Below the pieces are notes generated by a model that searched no databases, was not told the origin of the DNA, and was given only the letters and a program-made list of their open reading frames with translations. Both the position numbers and the translations under genes were made by a program. Below are positions 20,009-26,551 of a DNA stretch of 26,551 bases, in pieces; position 1 is the first letter of the stretch; every line of letters starts with the position of its first letter. This DNA is from Chlamydiota bacterium (GTDB taxonomy: Bacteria; Chlamydiota; Chlamydiia; Chlamydiales; RGXB01), in NCBI GenBank assembly GCA_947494155.1, contig CANLTW010000017.1, positions 1 through 26,551 on the forward strand, written 5' to 3'.

Positions 20009-20895
20009 CCCTTTGTTGTATTTTGTATATTTGCGATAGCGTCTTGGTAGTTTTTAAGAATTTCAGCTACCTGAGCCTCAATTGCCAGCCTCTCTTGTTC
20101 GTGGCGATTTTCGTCGAAAGTCTCTGTCAGGCGGGTTTGCTGTTGTTTTACTTTTTCGCTTTGCTCGCTTGCAATTTTGTTTAAAAGAGCAGCTTGCCGT
20201 TTGCGATAGCCCTCGTCGATTTGAGAAACTCCTGAGGTAATTTGGGAAGCTAGATTTGCGAATTTTTCCGCCGGAGAGGGGAGGGTAGCCATTGAGGACA
20301 TATGGTAAATGGTTGACCCAGCCAGTGCGATGATATTTAGAGAAAGTAGAGCATTTTTAAACCTCTCGTCCACCAGATCAAAACCATCAAAGGCATGAGC
20401 CATCAAGGAAGTCGTTGAAAGCGCCAACGTGGATCCTTTCAAAAGCTTTTCCCCTAAAGTAGCCTGACTCCAGGTTCCGGTAAAAAGAAAAGAAACGGTA
20501 GATGTTGTGAAAAGGGCCAAATTCTTTAAAAGTCGGGAAAAGTGAGCTTTTTCTTCAGCCTTAACACTCTCTTTTTCGGCATCTAGAAGACTTTTGCGGT
20601 GGGATTGGAGCTGTTTGGATAGATGGATGATCTGCTCTCGATTATCCTCGAGCAATTCCCCTTTGAGTTTGTCTAGACTTGTTACAAAATTTACAAGATT
20701 GAGCATAGGGTTGCAACCTATGCTGCTTGGGGCCGGAATTTTTGGCCTTAAATCGATTTTTTTTGATGAAGAGGACTCTTGGATGACTACATCAGGTGAA
20801 AAGGGGACAGAGTGGCTATCAAAAGATACAGCGATATCTTTTGCCGGTTCCACCCTTTTTTTATTCCCAACAGGTTCAATCCTTACATCGTTCAT
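20005..20895 (-). CDS. Probable type III secretion major translocator (CopB/YopB/SctE-like)
   Basis: Directly downstream of the LcrH/SycD chaperone. Pro-containing N-terminal segment (RPKIPAP, a PxLxxP-like chaperone-binding motif), coiled coil, central hydrophobic segments and a C-terminal coiled coil. Confidence 0.65.
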   Translation of the reverse strand: MNDVRIEPVGNKKRVEPAKDIAVSFDSHSVPFSPDVVIQESSSSKKIDLRPKIPAPSSIGCNPMLNLVNFVTSLDKLKGELLEDNREQIIHLSKQLQSHRKSLLDAEKESVKAEEKAHFSRLLKNLALFTTSTVSFLFTGTWSQATLGEKLLKGSTLALSTTSLMAHAFDGFDLVDERFKNALLSLNIIALAGSTIYHMSSMATLPSPAEKFANLASQITSGVSQIDEGYRKRQAALLNKIASEQSEKVKQQQTRLTETFDENRHEQERLAIEAQVAEILKNYQDAIANIQNTTKG

Positions 20896-21355
20896 ACAAA
20901 ACCTCCAGTTGGGTTTGAAAATCGAGATCCTCTTTGGGTGACAACTCTTCAGCTTTCAATAGCGCCCCTTTGGCCTCATCGTAACGCTTGAGATCCATAA
21001 GTGCTTTTGCCGTGTATAGATAGAGGAGAGGATCGTTCGGATCCATGAGTAAAGCTACAGAAAAGTATACCACGCTATCAGCCGACTGATCGAGCATCTG
21101 GCACGTGCATCCCAAGGCTTTCCAGTAGGCGGGATGGAAGGGGTGAGAAAAAATCAGCTTTAAAAAAAGTGATTTTGCTTTTTCATACTGACCTACTGAG
21201 TAAAAGGTGTAGCCCATAGAGTAAACAAGCTCTAAATCTTTGTCAGACAGTTCGACAATATCTAGCGGCGTTAGAGTGCTATTAGACCGAATTTTTCTAA
21301 CAATTGATTCGATTTGTTTTCTGGCCAGAAGAGATAAATGACTATCTGCCGGCAC
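20876..21355 (-). CDS. lcrH: SycD/LcrH family class II type III secretion chaperone (TPR)
   Basis: LELVYSMGYTFYSVGQYEKAKSLF, YWKALGCTCQM and ALLMDPNDP form three TPR-like repeats typical of LcrH/SycD. Confidence 0.9.
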   Translation of the reverse strand: MPADSHLSLLARKQIESIVRKIRSNSTLTPLDIVELSDKDLELVYSMGYTFYSVGQYEKAKSLFLKLIFSHPFHPAYWKALGCTCQMLDQSADSVVYFSVALLMDPNDPLLYLYTAKALMDLKRYDEAKGALLKAEELSPKEDLDFQTQLEVLYERCKD

Positions 21356-21836
21356 GATTCATCATCTTTTCTTTAAGTTCGCTCTCTTTTTGCACCACAT
21401 ATTTGGTGATTTCGGAAAGGAGCTTCATTAACTGGATTTGCGTCTCTATAACCATGATATCCGGTTGTACCCGGTTTTCCAAGGTAGATTTCGAACCCTC
21501 AACCTCATCAATCAGGGCCTCTAAGTCCTTAAGAGGTACTTTTTTTAGATCGAGCTTATCGAAATCAAACGAGCTCTTGAGTTCGCTGTCTAAACTGTTT
21601 TGGATCTCCTCGTGCTGCTTTCTATAGGAGGCTATGGCGTCTGAAAAAGGTGAAAGATCCACCTCTTTAGATCCATCAGTTTTACGACGTAAGTTTCTCA
21701 ATAAAATAGCATCTTGCCTGAGGTGAAAACTGATTTTATCCAGCTCCTCTTTTTTTTCTGCGATTTTACTATAAACGATATGATCAAATTGCTGAGCTGC
21801 GGCTACTACATAGTAAGATGCACACTTGATGCCCAT
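21342..21836 (-). CDS. Hypothetical coiled-coil protein, first gene of the chaperone/translocator cassette
   Basis: 164 aa, GAGG RBS upstream, overlaps the chaperone start. Confidence 0.75.
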   Translation of the reverse strand: MGIKCASYYVVAAAQQFDHIVYSKIAEKKEELDKISFHLRQDAILLRNLRRKTDGSKEVDLSPFSDAIASYRKQHEEIQNSLDSELKSSFDFDKLDLKKVPLKDLEALIDEVEGSKSTLENRVQPDIMVIETQIQLMKLLSEITKYVVQKESELKEKMMNRAGR

Positions 21837-21937
21837 AAAATTTCCTCAAAAAAAGTTTTCCTAAGTCTATTTTATCTTGAAAAGGGACTCTTTGGCAATA
21901 GTCGAAATTTTTTTATTTTATAAAGGCATTCTATTTT

Positions 21938-22450
21938 TTATTTACATTCATTGTAGGGGACAGGGGAGGTAGTAGGGGGAAGAGGGGTCTCTGTATACAA
22001 AACTTTAACCTCCATCATCGATTCGGCAAAAACAACCTTTTTCCCATCAATCTCCATTAGGTACAAAGTCGTTTTTGGGCTCAAAAGCCGTTTTTCTAAA
22101 ATTTGCAGAGAATGAGATTTCATTCCAAATGTATGCCTACTGTGAGACATGCGTCGTAGAAACCAAATCGTCAAGAGGATAAGAGTGACAAAGCCGAACA
22201 GGGATAAAAGGGTCTTCAGTATGGCGTTTTGAAAATTTTTATTTTGTGTTTGAATTTCCTGACTGTCCTGATTTTGATCCTCTTTTTCCGACTCCTGTGT
22301 TTTTTTCACCTCCTGAGCGGGAGCGGTTTTATCCGGCTCTACCACCACAATCGTTTCGTTAAGGGTAGCAATAGAGTTTTGTCCTAAGCTTGTATTTTCT
22401 GCAAAAGCCAAAGAGCTGAAAAAAACAAGGCATATTAAGTAACATCTCAT
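21938..22450 (-). CDS. fliO: FliO/MopB family membrane protein
   Basis: ATG at 22450 with a GGAG RBS and signal peptide (MRCYLICLVFFSSLAFA). TM LLSLFGFVTLILLTIWFLRR followed by the FliO-type LQILEKRLLSPKTTLYLMEIDGKKVV. Confidence 0.82.
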   Translation of the reverse strand: MRCYLICLVFFSSLAFAENTSLGQNSIATLNETIVVVEPDKTAPAQEVKKTQESEKEDQNQDSQEIQTQNKNFQNAILKTLLSLFGFVTLILLTIWFLRRMSHSRHTFGMKSHSLQILEKRLLSPKTTLYLMEIDGKKVVFAESMMEVKVLYTETPLPPTTSPVPYNECK

Positions 22451-22758
22451 AGCTGCTCCCCAAAAAATAGAAAAGACGATACGAAAACCTATAGCAGAAA
22501 AGCTTTTAAACCAACAGATGAAAAAAACGAGTTTTGGTCCGTTTTGCATTTCATGGAGAGGGGAGCTCCAAACGCCACTATTTTCCCCTACGAGAGCAAT
22601 CCTGCTCTATCTTTTGATGAAAAAACTCCTCAACGGACAACATCTTCTAGGTTTTTTGTTGTCTAAAGAGGTGTCTAACTTACTAAAAGAAAAAGGTTAA
22701 TCATCTTAGATGTACAAAAAAAACCATTGATTATATCTATAAATCAAAAGGGAAAGGC

Positions 22759-22878
22759 ATGAAAAAAAAGACAAGTACTAGTAAGAAAGCTTTAAATAAA
22801 AAAGTAGCCAAAGGAAAGAAATCACCAGTCAAAGGGGGGGTTACAGAGGAACCCGTCCCTGCTATACCGATCAATTAA
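22759..22878 (+). CDS. Small Lys-rich-leader/GG peptide P1 (39 aa): MKKKTSTSKKALNKKVAKGKKSPVKGG-VTEEPVPAIPIN
   Basis: Hand-translated. GGAAAGG upstream of the ATG; shares a 41-bp leader block with P2. Confidence 0.7.
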   Translation: MKKKTSTSKKALNKKVAKGKKSPVKGGVTEEPVPAIPIN

Positions 22879-22968
22879 CAAAAACCTAAATAAAACGAAG
22901 AGGACAAATGAAGAAGCAACCAAAGGCAAAAGTAGCCAAAGGAAAGAAATCACCAGTCAAAGGGGGGG
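22800..22968 (+). repeat. 41-bp exact direct repeat (22800-22840 and 22928-22968) encoding KVAKGKKSPVKGG
   Basis: AAAAGTAGCCAAAGGAAAGAAATCACCAGTCAAAGGGGGGG occurs twice; the sequences diverge after the G run. Confidence 0.92.
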
Positions 22969-23120
22969 GGGAGACAATCAAAGCAACTAGCGGGCAAACT
23001 TCAAATATGGATCCAAATTGTGGAATACAAAAGGTCCGCGAATATTAAAACGAAAAAGATAGCCATAATCTATTGACAAAACGAAGAGGACAAATGAAGA
23101 AGCAACCAAAGGCAAAAGTA
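22892..23120 (+). repeat. 43-bp exact direct repeat (22892-22934 and 23078-23120) covering the RBS and MKKQPKAKV
   Basis: AAAACGAAGAGGACAAATGAAGAAGCAACCAAAGGCAAAAGTA occurs twice. Confidence 0.92.
22908..23048 (+). CDS. Small Lys-rich-leader/GG peptide P2 (46 aa): MKKQPKAKVAKGKKSPVKGGG-ETIKATSGQTSNMDPNCGIQKVREY
   Basis: Hand-translated. GAGG RBS; leader blocks shared with P1 and P3. Confidence 0.78.
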   Translation: MKKQPKAKVAKGKKSPVKGGGETIKATSGQTSNMDPNCGIQKVREY

Positions 23121-23252
23121 CCCAAAAGAAAGAAAACTACAAAGAAAAAGATTGCTGGGGGGGGGGCGTATGGTGTTGATACAAGTTATCCAAAGTGTAT
23201 AAAACAAGAATGTGTCGGCAATCCCAGCAAATCTTTTAGAAATCTAAACTAG
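23094..23252 (+). CDS. Small Lys-rich-leader/GG peptide P3 (52 aa): MKKQPKAKVPKRKKTTKKKIAGGG-AYGVDTSYPKCIKQECVGNPSKSFRNLN
   Basis: Hand-translated. Same RBS block as P2, two Cys in the core. Its TAG overlaps the fabI TAG in a CTAG palindrome at 23249-23252. Confidence 0.78.
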   Translation: MKKQPKAKVPKRKKTTKKKIAGGGAYGVDTSYPKCIKQECVGNPSKSFRNLN

Positions 23253-24172
23253 CCTCTTGACAAGACGAGCGCCTCTTCTTTTTGGATCACTTTTTGTGTA
23301 GGTCTCCCCATCACGCCTAAGCCGTGATCGACAAACAGTACCTGCCCTGTAATCGCTTTTCCTAGAGGGGAGGCCAAAAAGAGCATTGTGTTGGCGACGT
23401 CTTCTGCTTCCAAATCTCTTTGAATAGGAGAGTTATGAAATGAGTACTCGATCATTGAATCAATCATACCAATAGCACGTGCAGCTCTAGAGGCCAACGG
23501 CCCTGCAGAAATGGCGTTTACGCGGATCATTTTTTCTTGGCCCAGTTCGTAGGCGAGATAGCGCACATCGGCTTCTAAAGCGGCTTTAGCGGAAGACATA
23601 CCCCCTCCATAACCAGGGATCACCTGATCGGCAGCGCGATAGGTAAGCGTTAGGCAGGATCCGTTTGGCTCCATAAGATTTTTGAAATGGGAACAGAGGC
23701 TAACGAAAGAGTAGCTAGAGGCGCTTATTGCGTGTAAATAGCCCTCTCTGGAGGTCATAGACAAGGGGTTTTTGATCTCTTTGGCATTTGCAATTGCATG
23801 AATTACAATATCCACTTTTTTAAAATCTTGGGCAACAGCAGATACAAAGCCGCTAATCGAAAAGTCTTGGAGTCCTTTATAGCGTTTATTTTCTTTGACT
23901 TCAAAAGGGACCGCGTCAAGGGTGTCGTATAGTGCATCTAATGGATAGATGGCATCAAAACTAAGCTCTTCACCATTTTTAAGCCTTCTGGATTCACTAA
24001 ATTTTTCATTTACCAGGATTTGTTCTAAAATTCCGAGCAAGGGGGGCCAGGTGCCTGCGATTACTTTCGCTCCAAGATTTTTGAAGGCCTTAGCAATAGC
24101 CCAGGCAAATCCCTGGTCATCGCCAATACCGGCAATCACAACAACCTTATCTTTTAAGTCCCATGGATCCAT
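23249..24172 (-). CDS. fabI: Enoyl-[acyl-carrier-protein] reductase (NADH), chlamydial/plant-type
   Basis: AGIGDDQGFAWAIAK, GTWPP, YPLDA, NKRY insert, TSREGYLHAISASSYS, catalytic YGGGMSSAKAALE and ISAGPLASRAA. Confidence 0.97.
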   Translation of the reverse strand: MDPWDLKDKVVVIAGIGDDQGFAWAIAKAFKNLGAKVIAGTWPPLLGILEQILVNEKFSESRRLKNGEELSFDAIYPLDALYDTLDAVPFEVKENKRYKGLQDFSISGFVSAVAQDFKKVDIVIHAIANAKEIKNPLSMTSREGYLHAISASSYSFVSLCSHFKNLMEPNGSCLTLTYRAADQVIPGYGGGMSSAKAALEADVRYLAYELGQEKMIRVNAISAGPLASRAARAIGMIDSMIEYSFHNSPIQRDLEAEDVANTMLFLASPLGKAITGQVLFVDHGLGVMGRPTQKVIQKEEALVLSRG

Positions 24173-24400
24173 ATCATTTCTCTCAAAGCTTTATCTATTG
24201 CAAGAATATACTACGAAGCTTGTTTTCCTGTTAACCCTGTTTTGTTTTGCTACTGCTAGTCGAAACAACAAAAGAAAATAGGCGTCTCCTAGTTTCTCTA
24301 GGTTAAAAAAGCCCTCTTTAATAGGAGATTTCATCGGTTTAACTCTTTAAATCGACAAAAAAGCCTATTCATATTACCAAAAAATTAAAGTGTGGGATGT

Positions 24401-24547
24401 ATGAAAAAAAAACAAACACCAAAAAAGAAAGCTGTAAAAAAGAAAAAAAATACTAAAGGTGGAGAGTGTGTTCAATCTGGTTCTTTTTGGGGGCAATGTA
24501 AAAACGATGGACCTGATGATTTTTGGAGAACCAATTTAATCAAATAG
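24401..24547 (+). CDS. Small Lys-rich-leader/GG peptide P4 (48 aa): MKKKQTPKKKAVKKKKNTKGG-ECVQSGSFWGQCKNDGPDDFWRTNLIK
   Basis: Hand-translated. GGGA upstream; 11 Lys in the first 19 aa, KGG hinge, core with 2 Cys and 2 Trp. Confidence 0.75.
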   Translation: MKKKQTPKKKAVKKKKNTKGGECVQSGSFWGQCKNDGPDDFWRTNLIK

Positions 24548-24644
24548 TGGGTTAATTTTTTTAAGGTTCACTCTCCCCTTTACCTATTTCAACTTAGCAG
24601 GGTTATATTGTTTTTCATGAGACTTCTAGCTATACTTTTGAAGT

Positions 24645-25865
24645 ATGCGACACAAAAATGCCTTAATCCTCAAAGCCTTTGAAAGGCACTACCAAGAGGA
24701 GACAGGGTTTATCCATTTTGGGGTAGTAGCTCCTATTTTGGAAAACGCCCTATTTGCTTTGGCCCTTTTTAGAAAAAAAGAGCAAAAAACTATGCTGGAG
24801 GGAAAGGTGCTTCTATTGCGTTTGCTCTCCTATCAAAGCTCATCTGGTCTATTTCCCGACGCAGTCCATCTACTGGATCATGGCCATTTTTCCTGGAAAA
24901 AGAATCTCTACCTTGCTGCCGTTTTTACCCATCTTCTTAGAGAATTTGACCGGGTGATTGATAAGGTGTCGAAGGAAAAGATCCACCGCTGCTACACTTT
25001 TCTGATCGACGGATTAAAAAAGCTGGAATTGGGCGGAGCCCTTTTATTTTTGCGCTCTCTCCTTTTAGAAGAAGACCCTTTTCCTCTGGCCCCGTTAGAA
25101 TCCCAAGAAGAGGTGGAGATTTTTGTTGTCGGTTATGCCATAGCGCCTGAATCGCAACGACTTAAATTTGAGGAAATCCTTTCTTGGTACGTACTCAAAG
25201 ATGCCCCTTTTTATCAGGGCCCTTTTGAAGGGGTCAAGCAGTACAAGGGTAGGCTATTAAAATCTTTGATAGAAATTTCTCTAACTGTCGAAGAGGAGCT
25301 GAATGAGGAGGAGGCGATATTCGATAGGGTGTGGATGGAATCGGTTTTGGCTCCAGATCTTTCGCATATTAAAGGTCAGGCATTTTGGGTTCGCCACAAG
25401 GATTTAAGGGAGAAGGGGGATCTTTATGCTCTGGCTTTTTTGGATTTAAAACAGGGGCTTACAGCTGCTTTGTATCTTCCCCAAAACACCTTTTTTGATC
25501 CAAAAACATCGATTTACACTTTTTCACTTGAGGGTTTTTATGAGGAGGATACTCATGAAATTAGCCTTTACATCCCTAAATCCCCCTCTATTGAAGTCCA
25601 TGTTGATCAGGTAAAATCTTCGATTTTTCGAGAAAACGAGTGTGTAATGATTGATACAGAAGGTCAAACCATCCCCCTAATGTTTCGCATTGTTGAAGGG
25701 GATGGGAAGTTTATAGGGCATATAAGTTTGGATTCCAGACCCAATGAAATGGAAAAAGGGGGAATTTACGACAGAAAAATCTCGATTCGAACAATCGAAA
25801 GATCTTTGAGTTGCAAAATAGAGCTTTTTATTGGTTGGAATCAAGAGACCCTCAACTCTCTTTGA
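24645..25865 (+). CDS. Hypothetical protein (N-terminal helical region, C-terminal beta-rich region)
   Basis: 406-aa ORF with ATG start. No motif I can assign with confidence. Confidence 0.75.
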   Translation: MRHKNALILKAFERHYQEETGFIHFGVVAPILENALFALALFRKKEQKTMLEGKVLLLRLLSYQSSSGLFPDAVHLLDHGHFSWKKNLYLAAVFTHLLREFDRVIDKVSKEKIHRCYTFLIDGLKKLELGGALLFLRSLLLEEDPFPLAPLESQEEVEIFVVGYAIAPESQRLKFEEILSWYVLKDAPFYQGPFEGVKQYKGRLLKSLIEISLTVEEELNEEEAIFDRVWMESVLAPDLSHIKGQAFWVRHKDLREKGDLYALAFLDLKQGLTAALYLPQNTFFDPKTSIYTFSLEGFYEEDTHEISLYIPKSPSIEVHVDQVKSSIFRENECVMIDTEGQTIPLMFRIVEGDGKFIGHISLDSRPNEMEKGGIYDRKISIRTIERSLSCKIELFIGWNQETLNSL

Positions 25866-25914
25866 ACAAAAAGCTCTTTATAGGGAGAACCACTGATTCT
25901 TCTTTTTGGGCTAC

Positions 25915-26046
25915 TTAATCATGTCCACAAACTTTTATGTCACCTTTTTGGGGGATACTAATCCATGACCCTTCCCCCCCCCCGAATTTTTTAATATTTT
26001 TTTTGTTTTTAGCCTTACTTTTTTTAGTTTCTGCATTCTTTTTCAT
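25915..26046 (-). CDS. Small Lys-rich-leader/GG peptide P5 (43 aa): MKKNAETKKSKAKNKKNIKKFGGG-EGSWISIPQKGDIKVCGHD
   Basis: Hand-translated on the minus strand. AGGGGA RBS upstream; same leader/GGG/core layout. Confidence 0.75.
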   Translation of the reverse strand: MKKNAETKKSKAKNKKNIKKFGGGEGSWISIPQKGDIKVCGHD

Positions 26047-26258
26047 AGAATTCCCCTAATTATAAATTCCACTTACAACTAATTACTTTTTTTAGCAAAA
26101 ATAGACTTTAATCCAGGTATACCGACCAGGCCTCACCTCACTCTCTTTGATTGTCCTCGCCCTAGTTTGAATAGTCCCAACCTTTTTGGAAAAAAAAACT
26201 TGCAATTTTTGAAAATTCAGATAGATCCAAAAATTAGAAGAACATAAAAGGGTTTTTT

Positions 26259-26374
26259 ATGAAAAAGCATCCAAAGATCAGCCATACAGCTGCAAAAAAG
26301 ACAGCAAACGCCTTGGTCAAAAATACAAGGGTGGGAATTATTCCACAGATTATGGCATGAATTCCCACAAATAA
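26259..26374 (+). pseudogene. Possible frameshifted sixth member (P6): MKKHPKISHTAAKKTANALVKNT, with KGGNYSTDYGMNSHK in the -1 frame
   Basis: The in-frame ORF 26259-26360 reads ...KNTRVGIIPQIMA. One extra base near 26327 would give NTKGG, matching the P4 hinge (KNTKGG), and a stop at 26372-26374. Confidence 0.4.
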
Positions 26375-26551
26375 TTGCCAACCAACAGGTTAGATCGACA
26401 TAGCGGGGTTATTTTTCGGAGTCCCTCTTCATTAACCCTTTAAACCCATAAATAAACGAAACAGTGTCGACTCCCTAAAAAAAATAAGCTCCCCATTCAG
26501 CGCAACTTGTTCATTATCAACAAGCTATTTTCTCTTACCCCCCCCCTTTTT

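Follow-up and report, generated by a model that had tools for sequence, protein, structure and literature searches.

Short open reading frames with a lysine-rich start, a glycine hinge and a variable tail lie in a 26,551-base stretch of DNA (the window) from an uncultured lake chlamydia, and the hinge of several of them is spelled by an unbroken run of G. Homopolymeric tracts underlie the contingency loci of Neisseria, Haemophilus and Campylobacter. The preliminary description of the window proposed that the runs are slipped-strand switches which toggle the peptides or exchange the core behind a constant leader. We ask here whether the runs sit in genuine peptide genes, whether they exceed what codon usage would give, and whether their variation is that of a switch. 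The features concerned are collected in Table 1.

Table 1. Peptide genes, hinge runs and related features of the window
Feature	Position	Strand	Basis
P1, 39-aa family ORF (Lys-rich leader, GG hinge, 12-aa tail)	22759..22878	+	ORF list and family scan
P1 hinge run, G7 (GGG GGG G)	22834..22840	+	run count
58-nt repeat (ribosome-binding site, start codon, first leader codons)	22892..22949	+	97% to 23078-23135
P2, 46-aa family ORF	22908..23048	+	ORF list and family scan
P2 hinge run, G10	22962..22971	+	run count, strain comparison
P3, 52-aa family ORF, tail with two Cys	23094..23252	+	ORF list and family scan
P3 hinge run, G10 (GGG GGG GGG G)	23157..23166	+	run count; same in X1 record 8
P4, 48-aa family ORF, hinge GGT GGA, no run	24401..24547	+	family scan
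P5, 43-aa family ORF	25915..26046	-	ORF list and family scan
P5 hinge run, G10 (C10 on +)	25974..25983	-	run count, strain comparison
P6, family member frameshifted in this assembly, not at a G run	26259..26360	+	strain comparison
C9 run at contig edge, non-coding	26538..26546	-	upstream of promoter-like site in L013

The peptide family and its predicted exporters

Seventeen open reading frames of the genome fit the family pattern, against none when the genome is reversed and 2-5 per Markov-3 simulation (five simulations); the Gly-Gly at the leader end of all 17 is built into the scan pattern. A frame-blind pattern (start codon and two Lys codons, 36-66 nt, then G7) finds seven distinct loci in this genome and no match in the controls. 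In 60 other genomes of the order, it gave 15 matches in 11 genomes; by reading, none of the matches is Lys-rich, and the two that were read by codon have in-frame stops. Among nine aligned members, the invariant columns are only M1, K2, K3 and the two Gly. The leaders, about half Lys/Arg, place the Gly-Gly motif 18-26 residues from the start, the hinge counts 2 to 5 glycines, and many cores contain Cys and Ser/Thr, several being without Cys. The family has no match in Pfam, NCBIfam or the atlas, and its relatives in the protein database are close strains alone. Cores are conserved across species of the genus while leaders drift (an ortholog of P4 in genome G006 and of the C7 peptide in G002). 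Judged from these comparisons, the peptide family is real and specific to the lineage.

Several members of the window recur elsewhere. Exact copies of the P1 protein are present in other assemblies, together with a variant in which the run ends in a G-to-T change; P3 is found unchanged on an NCBI-sourced 564-base contig, an identical P5 protein is present on an 87-kb contig, and P5 is also covered by a contig from an RNA library (X15). In L013, a strain contig 97-98% identical to the window, the P2 ortholog has the same core, and the two-Cys core of P4 is conserved both there and in G006. The GGT GGA spelling of the P4 hinge is as originally described; this gene is missing from strain X2, and X3 has a deletion that removes its start. 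P6 in X3 differs by a single additional base behind 26293, which by hand translation restores the GG hinge and a tail like that of the G006:C149 ortholog.

The genome encodes two three-gene NHLP-type C39 peptidase/ABC export cassettes, one of them headed by a family member. Two PF03412 matches (C39 peptidase) are above cut-off, and the best NCBIfam matches (TIGR03794/03796/03797) are just below theirs (for TIGR03796, 818 and 808 bits against 853). The operon of that cassette, on C8, begins with the family peptide and includes a protein similar to the N-terminal part of LanM. This 535-aa protein matches positions 10-271 of the 932 of TIGR03897 (E 1.3e-61, below cut-off), and no cyclase domain was seen in it. 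The other 16 of the 17 peptides lie away from the transporters. We infer that the peptides probably leave the cell through the two NHLP-type C39-peptidase ABC transporters, after cleavage behind the glycines. The excess of the family over controls and the presence of C39 exporters of the Gly-Gly-cutting type both uphold the proposal that the runs occupy a real leader/core-type hinge.

Leaders of the double-glycine class run for 15-30 residues and close with Gly-Gly or with Gly-Ala/Ser, a form that all 17 members have. Double-glycine leaders of the C39/PCAT type carry hydrophobic residues at -4, -7 and -12, according to the available part of the LahT study (PMC6363468). The present leaders resemble C39/AMS/PCAT leaders in their Gly-Gly motif, in the two cognate cassettes, in the peptide that heads an operon and in position -4, which is often I/V/L (9/17). 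Unlike them, they are rich in Lys/Arg, are mostly without the usual hydrophobic residues at -7 and -12 (found in 2/17 each), have Lys and not Glu at -8 in 12/17, and end in a hinge of up to five glycines. A second parallel is provided by the prochlorosin-type systems, in which one enzyme serves many scattered precursors whose leader is conserved and whose cores vary (PMC10783134, accessible portion). As far as that portion goes, the likeness lies in precursor-like genes scattered over a small genome, neighbours sharing leader DNA, differing cores and a single LanM-related gene, whereas the leader here is not Nif11- or NHLP-like, no cyclase domain is seen and several cores are without Cys.

Frequency and purity of the hinge runs

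All five runs of the preliminary description (G7, G10, G10, C10 and C9) were found in place, and the run count confirmed the G9-G10 tracts as the longest G/C runs of the window: apart from these five runs of at least 7, none exceeds 7, and runs of at least 8 occur at no other locus. The statement that every run lies at a leader/core hinge holds for P1, P2, P3 and P5 and fails for the contig-edge run. The L013 counterpart of the latter (C7 then T9) borders a TTGAAT-17-TATAAT site, with a plus-strand ATG 27 bases further on, and the L013 sequence past the window end has no ATG-led Lys-rich frame. The edge run was therefore rejected as a peptide hinge, and with it the peptide gene proposed there; its length is C7 in L013 and 9 in G005:C46.

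The 1,414,195 bases of the genome contain 29 G/C runs of at least 9, a rate that predicts 0.076 for the 3.7-kb hinge region, where four were counted (Poisson 1.3e-6). Of the seven runs of 10 in the genome, this being the longest assembled G/C run, three fall inside 3.1 kb of the window; C10 runs elsewhere are at C2:150337 and C22:14931. The clustering exceeds chance. An independent assembly of the probable source run (X1, records 7 and 8) agrees in all three of G10, G10 and C10, without any difference or gap.

The genome does favour GGG, as had been remarked: it is the commonest Gly codon (34% of Gly codons). Among 1688 GG dipeptides, GGGGGG was observed 232 times for 194 expected, and 5 of the 145 Gly tripeptides of ordinary genes are all G, for 5.7 expected. 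The possibility that G9-G10 runs are common in ordinary genes was thus realised in part, since they are present at the expected rate, including a G9 in dnaK (C2:146637), at which relatives use mixed codons over always 9 nt. At the hinges the picture differs. Within the 17 peptide genes, 25 of 43 Gly codons at the hinge are GGG, compared with 6 of 39 Gly codons elsewhere, and six of the eight three-Gly hinges are pure (length given as G10, also as 9-12) compared with 5/145 ordinary tripeptides (Fisher p = 7.6e-7, or 8.6e-5 if counted as 4/6 lineages; the counted members being related, these tests overstate independence). The hinge runs are purer than codon usage predicts, and long runs are over-represented in this class of genes relative to the genome expectation. 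Besides the G10 of P2, P3 and P5, three other members have G9 and G8, and in 11 of the 17 members of this genome the hinge run does not exceed 7. Such an enrichment is also expected from selection for a hypermutable tract, and it therefore does not separate a slippage origin from a contingency locus.

Length variation among strains and paralogs

Run lengths vary among strains, and the invariance that would have spoken against the proposed switch was not found. Behind identical leader DNA, the hinge is G7 (P1), G10 followed by AG (P2), G12, G7-T-G4 or G10. The G7 of P1 is the end of a 41-nt stretch identical to 22928-22968, the joint in the strain comparison, where 41 letters fit both sides. 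In P2, the G10 and the next AG form a 12-nt block at which sister alleles have G12 or G7-T-G4; the position of the interruption differs between two strains. These in-frame variants, G12 as well as the interrupted ones, were met again in separate collections. Hinge runs of G7, G8 and G10 are found in a second subfamily, in G001. Long runs at the hinge thus occur in two subfamilies and in two species, a recurrence that counts against the slippage reading favoured below. In G002, two breaks divide the C7 run. Tract purity is accordingly not conserved in the P2 and C7-peptide orthologs, and the P5 run alone is kept. The latter is 10 in the window, in X1 and in L013, and apparently also in X15 (inferred, no length change being listed within the run); its length is held in L013 despite many flank indels and another codon phase. 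By this comparison, the P5 run itself could be preserved. Across the P5 leader and hinge, another allele has net in-frame (+3) indels.

Three alleles are apparently out of frame: the third copy in L013, a 29-aa form of P5 that corresponds to a G11 reading, and G001:C23. Their contigs measure 3936 and 1125 bases (the latter for the P5 form) and, in G001, 16 kb, and homopolymer error is possible. All seven run-bearing loci of the present genome are in frame. Of the first proposal, the differing lengths among strains and paralogs are supported, including apparent frame-breaking alleles with exactly the truncated products predicted; a tract purity conserved in orthologs is not. Members are also lost by other routes: the frameshift of P6, the deletions of P4, a P1/P2 fusion and, by reading of the sequence, leader look-alikes that contain stops and a TAG early in the L013 counterpart of P6.

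Interpretation of the runs

We favour, with a probability of about 0.55, the reading that the hinge runs are a slippage-inflated glycine spelling of a Gly-Gly(-Gly/-Gly-Gly) motif, which would make them mutational hot spots and not a core-exchange device. GGG is the preferred Gly codon and the hinge appears to accept two to five glycines, so a GGGGGG hinge could expand or contract by replication slippage. Selection would mostly retain the changes that keep the frame, and three-Gly hinges would in this way be born pure, as G9-G10. Runs made of slippage-prone G would be hot spots, and would therefore differ among paralogs and strains and at times be interrupted by point changes. A run shifted out of frame would cut the peptide short directly after the glycines, and such a tract frameshift would be one of several loss routes in this family of rapid turnover, beside nonsense codons, other frameshifts, deletions and recombination between repeated leader DNA.

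A contingency function, in which selection keeps G10-G12 hinges and reversible one-base slips switch exported peptides ON and OFF, is possible but doubtful. It would account for the purity of the three-Gly hinges, for the crowding of runs of 10, for alleles apparently out of frame exactly at the run in other assemblies and for a P5 run that stays at 10 in three or four assemblies (X15 by inference) whose flanks diverge. Precedents exist, as reported in the available parts of the sources, in the poly-G tracts of Chlamydia pmpG genes (PMC4488443) and in gonococcal NapC/NapR of the nap island, bacteriocin-like small peptides that are likely phase-variable and whose homopolymer lengths differ among isolates (PMC11798529). 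The latter resemble the present case as small peptides whose ORFs contain homopolymers of differing length, from which phase variability was judged likely there; the gonococcal case is drawn, in that part of the source, from more than 10,000 isolate genomes, and ours from a handful of metagenome assemblies, and that part does not place the gonococcal tract at the leader cleavage site. With contingency loci in general, they share an in-frame poly-G of 9-12 within the ORF, length differences among strains and truncation by a one-base change. Where the known loci encode a surface protein or glycosyltransferase, the product is here a 40-50-aa putative exported-peptide precursor; a functional glycine motif is encoded by the run, the run loses its purity in orthologs, and the length differences are those between assemblies. 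Against a contingency function also stand the short runs of most members, the in-frame state of all seven loci, the many other routes of loss and the ordinary genes, which do not avoid long G runs. The out-of-frame alleles, moreover, lie on short metagenome contigs, where homopolymer errors are common, and MutS is present in the genome, while a weak MutL_C match (22 bits for a 25-bit cut-off) suggests that a 630-aa frame is MutL. If the function were real, the population would hold a mixed, bet-hedged repertoire of secreted peptides in an intracellular bacterium, and contingency loci would be described for the first time both for RiPP-like precursor genes and for environmental chlamydiae.

The remaining explanations are less probable still. 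A mere by-product of codon usage, with GGG as favourite on a conserved Gly motif and neither slippage nor consequences, agrees with the codon frequencies and with ordinary G9 runs such as that of dnaK, and is improbable given the GGG excess at the hinges, which already strains it, and alleles with identical leader DNA whose runs differ, including by non-multiples of three. Homopolymer errors of sequencing or assembly could explain why a G/C run of at least 8 is no more than 40 nt away from 6 of the 48 contig ends (0.145 expected), why no assembled run exceeds 10 and why two of the three out-of-frame alleles are on short contigs; as a general account of run lengths or variants they are very unlikely, since X1 reproduces three lengths, G12 and interrupted forms recur across collections, and the interruptions are base substitutions, not length errors. 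We give equally little credit to A-rich-then-G-run stretches being non-coding elements with small ORFs by chance. The edge run is indeed non-coding and the databases hold no family beyond close strains, but this reading is opposed by the family excess over controls, the conserved cores behind drifting leaders, the +3 indels of P5 and the family member that comes first in an exporter operon. Just as implausible is a switch of cores, by which a one-base slip would retain the leader and place a different functional core behind it. Every alternative-frame peptide of the preliminary description was reproduced, and these frames read on for 1 to 37 residues beyond the Gly hinge, all short products; the G9 frame of P2 (34 residues) reads through the 58-nt repeat upstream of P3. 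Cys is found in the assembled-frame cores of P2, P3, P5, C7 and C10, and the cores of P2, C7 and the run-less P4 are conserved in relatives. Core differences among strains do not follow the choice of frame and map to recombination or cassette replacement at the repeated leader DNA and run.

Distribution of the glycine-hinge runs

The window corresponds to the whole of contig C17 in a 1.41-Mb genome of 24 contigs (G000). The organism is chlamydial by its gene content and is represented in roughly 15 studies, and the metagenome runs that contain it come mostly from lakes and other freshwater. The preliminary description had placed pure G runs at the Gly-Gly(-Gly) hinge that ends the leader of the small ORFs P1, P2, P3 and P5 and at the contig edge; all these runs were recovered, with no other G/C run above 7 in the window. 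The P4 hinge is indeed spelled GGT GGA, and every alternative-frame peptide proposed was reproduced. In X1, assembled separately from what is probably the source run, both G10 runs and the C10 run are identical. Genome-wide, 29 G/C runs of at least 9 are present (7 of length 10), so that the four such runs in 3.7 kb compare with 0.076 expected from this count. The observation is real, except for the edge "hinge".

Coordinates of the runs, peptide loci, neighbouring genes and export cassettes
Feature	Position	Strand or reading	Remark
G7	22834-22840	+	run search of window
G10	22962-22971	+	run search of window
G10	23157-23166	+	run search of window
C10	25974-25983	as read on +	run search of window
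C9	26538-26546	as read on +	run search of window
P4 locus	24296-24576		hypervariable cassette between fabI and 406-aa gene
P6, sixth family member	26259-26360		frameshifted in this assembly
406-aa protein gene	24645-25865		conserved across genus, 52-97% identity; no Pfam family
TPR protein and FliO-like small membrane protein	within 20876-22549		upstream neighbours
NHLP-type export cassette (L063)	G000:C8:45482-54941		HlyD-like, C39 peptidase-ABC, second ABC
NHLP-type export cassette (L064)	G000:C5:58335-64405		HlyD-like, C39 peptidase-ABC, second ABC

In the close-strain contig L013, the edge run reads C7 then T9, directly upstream of a promoter-like site (TTGAAT-17-TATAAT) and a plus-strand ATG, and no Lys-rich frame lies behind it; it was consequently rejected as a sixth hinge. 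Positions 26504-26551 (48 nt) are 98% identical to G005:C46:11-58, from another genome of the genus, in which the run measures 9 and likewise lies at a contig end; genes adjoining this stretch share only about 70-78% identity between the same two species. This suggests that the 48 nt form a conserved non-coding element next to the promoter-like site. More generally, 6 of the 48 contig ends of G000 (both ends of C2, and C14, C17, C19 and C24) have a G/C run of at least 8 no more than 40 nt away, against 0.145 expected, and the C24 end and the C2 start have a common G9 context. Assemblies seem to break at G/C runs, which is a technical warning on homopolymers in these data. Counts of A/T runs in G000 drop steeply, with 941 runs of 8 bases, 171 of 9, 3 of 10 and a single one of 11, and its G/C runs reach at most 10; either a limit of the assembly or selection acting against long homopolymers could be responsible.

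As the preliminary description had cautioned, this genome favours GGG, the commonest glycine codon in 1006 long ORFs (34%). GGGGGG is not avoided among the 1688 Gly-Gly dipeptides (232 seen, 194 expected), all-G Gly-Gly-Gly tripeptides occur at the expected rate (5 of 145, against 5.7), and 12 of the 29 long runs fall within ORFs of at least 150 aa. In dnaK, for instance, the Gly-Gly-Gly motif is spelled as a G9 (G000:C2:146637-146645) in this genome only; its closest relatives have mixed glycine codons at all three positions, with the same length. Codon usage thus explains the runs partly. The hinges nevertheless depart from the codon background of ordinary genes: in 17 small genes, GGG accounts for 25 of 43 hinge glycine codons versus 6 of 39 other glycine codons, and among 30 family members from five genomes or strains, six of the eight three-glycine hinges are G10 (Fisher p 7.6e-7, or 8.6e-5 if counted as 4 of 6 lineages).

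A lysine-rich leader family and its candidate exporters

A scan was made for short ORFs that begin with Met-Lys, contain at least 40% Lys/Arg as far as a Gly-Gly and continue into a tail. It identified 17 members in G000 and none when the genome was reversed, and five order-3 Markov simulations gave 2-5. A DNA pattern that ignores reading frame (start codon and two Lys codons, 36-66 nt, then G7) retrieved 7 distinct loci in G000 and none in the control. Among the 60 other genomes of the order, 11 yielded 15 matches in all; none of these appears Lys-rich from the match rows, and the two read codon by codon have in-frame stops. Family leaders drift between species whereas cores stay conserved. 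The P4 core is nearly unchanged, with its two cysteines, in G006 (another genome of the genus) and has a diverged form in L013, the two-Cys core of the family peptide on contig C7 is found again in G002, and G001 contains a separate subfamily. A profile built from 9 members gave matches in 3 of 7 genus genomes (E up to 1) and is insensitive, since the subfamily of G001, later found with the DNA pattern, escaped it. Pfam and NCBIfam gave nothing usable for the peptides or the 406-aa neighbour, and P4 had no usable match in the protein atlas and only itself in the protein database. An Rfam search of 21500-26551 returned just three matches, all far under gathering scores, and a promoter/terminator scan of 22500-26551 was uninformative (3 promoter-like sites, against 6.8 in shuffles).

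Two C39 peptidase domains are encoded in G000, within two three-gene cassettes whose best NCBIfam matches are NHLP-type HlyD, peptidase-ABC and second ABC subunit, each just below the cut-off. A family peptide with a five-glycine hinge comes first in the C8 cassette operon. Because of the family itself, its conserved cores, the C39 cassettes and this peptide-led operon, the hinge would most simply be read as a double-glycine cleavage site. The usual double-glycine leader consensus (PMC6363468) includes hydrophobic residues at -7 and -12; the family leaders are without them, which weakens this reading. The consulted part of PMC11798529 describes no homopolymer at a double-glycine site. Full-length matches to NHLP-type exporters were found in 8 of the 61 genomes of the order and are not confined to the genus, a second weakness of the cleavage-site reading, so that exporter presence alone does not tie them to the peptides. 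The C8 operon also encodes proteins of 156 and 187 aa and a 535-aa protein resembling the N-terminal part of LanM, which marks it as a candidate chlamydial gene cluster for a peptide natural product.

Tract variation and turnover among strains

The runs had been proposed to act as a slipped-strand switch, either of ON/OFF state or of core identity, and tract lengths do differ among strains and paralogs (G7, G8, G10, G12 and interrupted forms). In L013, with 97-98% identity, the P2 leader occurs in three genes arranged in tandem. Their hinges read G12, G7-T-G4 (in the ortholog of P2) and G10; the last of these, two bases short, is truncated five residues past the glycines, and the G12 frame would continue open for 57 codons further. 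In G001, the hinges are G7, G10 and a G8 allele stopping one residue after the hinge. The protein database contains a P5 form of 29 aa, encoded on a contig of 1125 bases and equal to the reading for G11, and a P1-leader/P2-core fusion with four glycines on three contigs, which fits a 128-base deletion in strain X3. A selected ON/OFF switch by run-length slips would agree with the P5 run, a sign of a preserved tract in that its length is 10 in the window, in X1 and in L013, although the flanks carry many indels, and, as inferred from the absence of any listed length change within it, apparently 10 in the RNA-library contig X15. Against such preservation, two strains show interruptions of the P2 block at different positions, and the run of the C7 peptide has two breaks in G002. 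We regard the switch as possible, though less probable than the reading favoured below.

Core-swapping by frame slip is unsupported. P4 is absent from strain X2, where four bases take its place, has lost its start through a 42-base deletion in X3, and is replaced in L013, where the leader differs; X3 also has one gap somewhere in 22928-24375. One extra base behind 26293 in X3 restores, by hand translation, the frame of P6, with a GG hinge and a tail resembling the ortholog at G006:C149. The printed sequence of L013 has an early TAG in this region, and that of G000 includes stop-bearing leader look-alikes. Homology between the window and L013 stops exactly at the P5 run, and leader DNA is repeated in the window, over 41 nt in one case and 58 nt in another. 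The diversity of cores therefore follows recombination and replacement rather than frame choice. Contig breaks of X1 at 22829/22939 and 23091/23107 were considered as tract heterogeneity and rejected, as they coincide with the two repeats.

We favour, with a probability of roughly 55%, the view that the runs are a slippage-inflated glycine hinge, a hot spot of mutation in a peptide family that turns over fast. On this conservative reading, a tolerated glycine hinge and the GGG preference would yield slippage-prone tracts and faster gene birth and death. If switching were true, a reduced 1.4-Mb chlamydial genome would vary the small exported peptides made per cell, the cleavage-site codons themselves would serve as the switch, and phase variation would be tied to peptide natural-product or bacteriocin biology. 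The locus in any case flags a previously unnoticed Lys-rich-leader peptide family, plus NHLP-type exporters, in chlamydiae.

Neighbouring genes

Gene order at 23249-25865, which covers fabI and the 406-aa gene, is unlike that of the genus relatives G005, G001 and G003; in these, fabI follows the 406-aa gene, and small peptide genes were not found next to the pair. For the 406-aa protein, a low-confidence AlphaFold model (mean pLDDT 58) predicts an N-terminal half made of helices and a C-terminal half rich in beta structure, and Foldseek returned just low-TM (0.2-0.3) matches to polysaccharide lyases and not to LanC, so that no link to the peptides was established. A metagenome scan with this protein retrieved just 3 loci, one of them from a close strain. 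Finally, the upstream TPR and FliO-like proteins are probably related to type III secretion.
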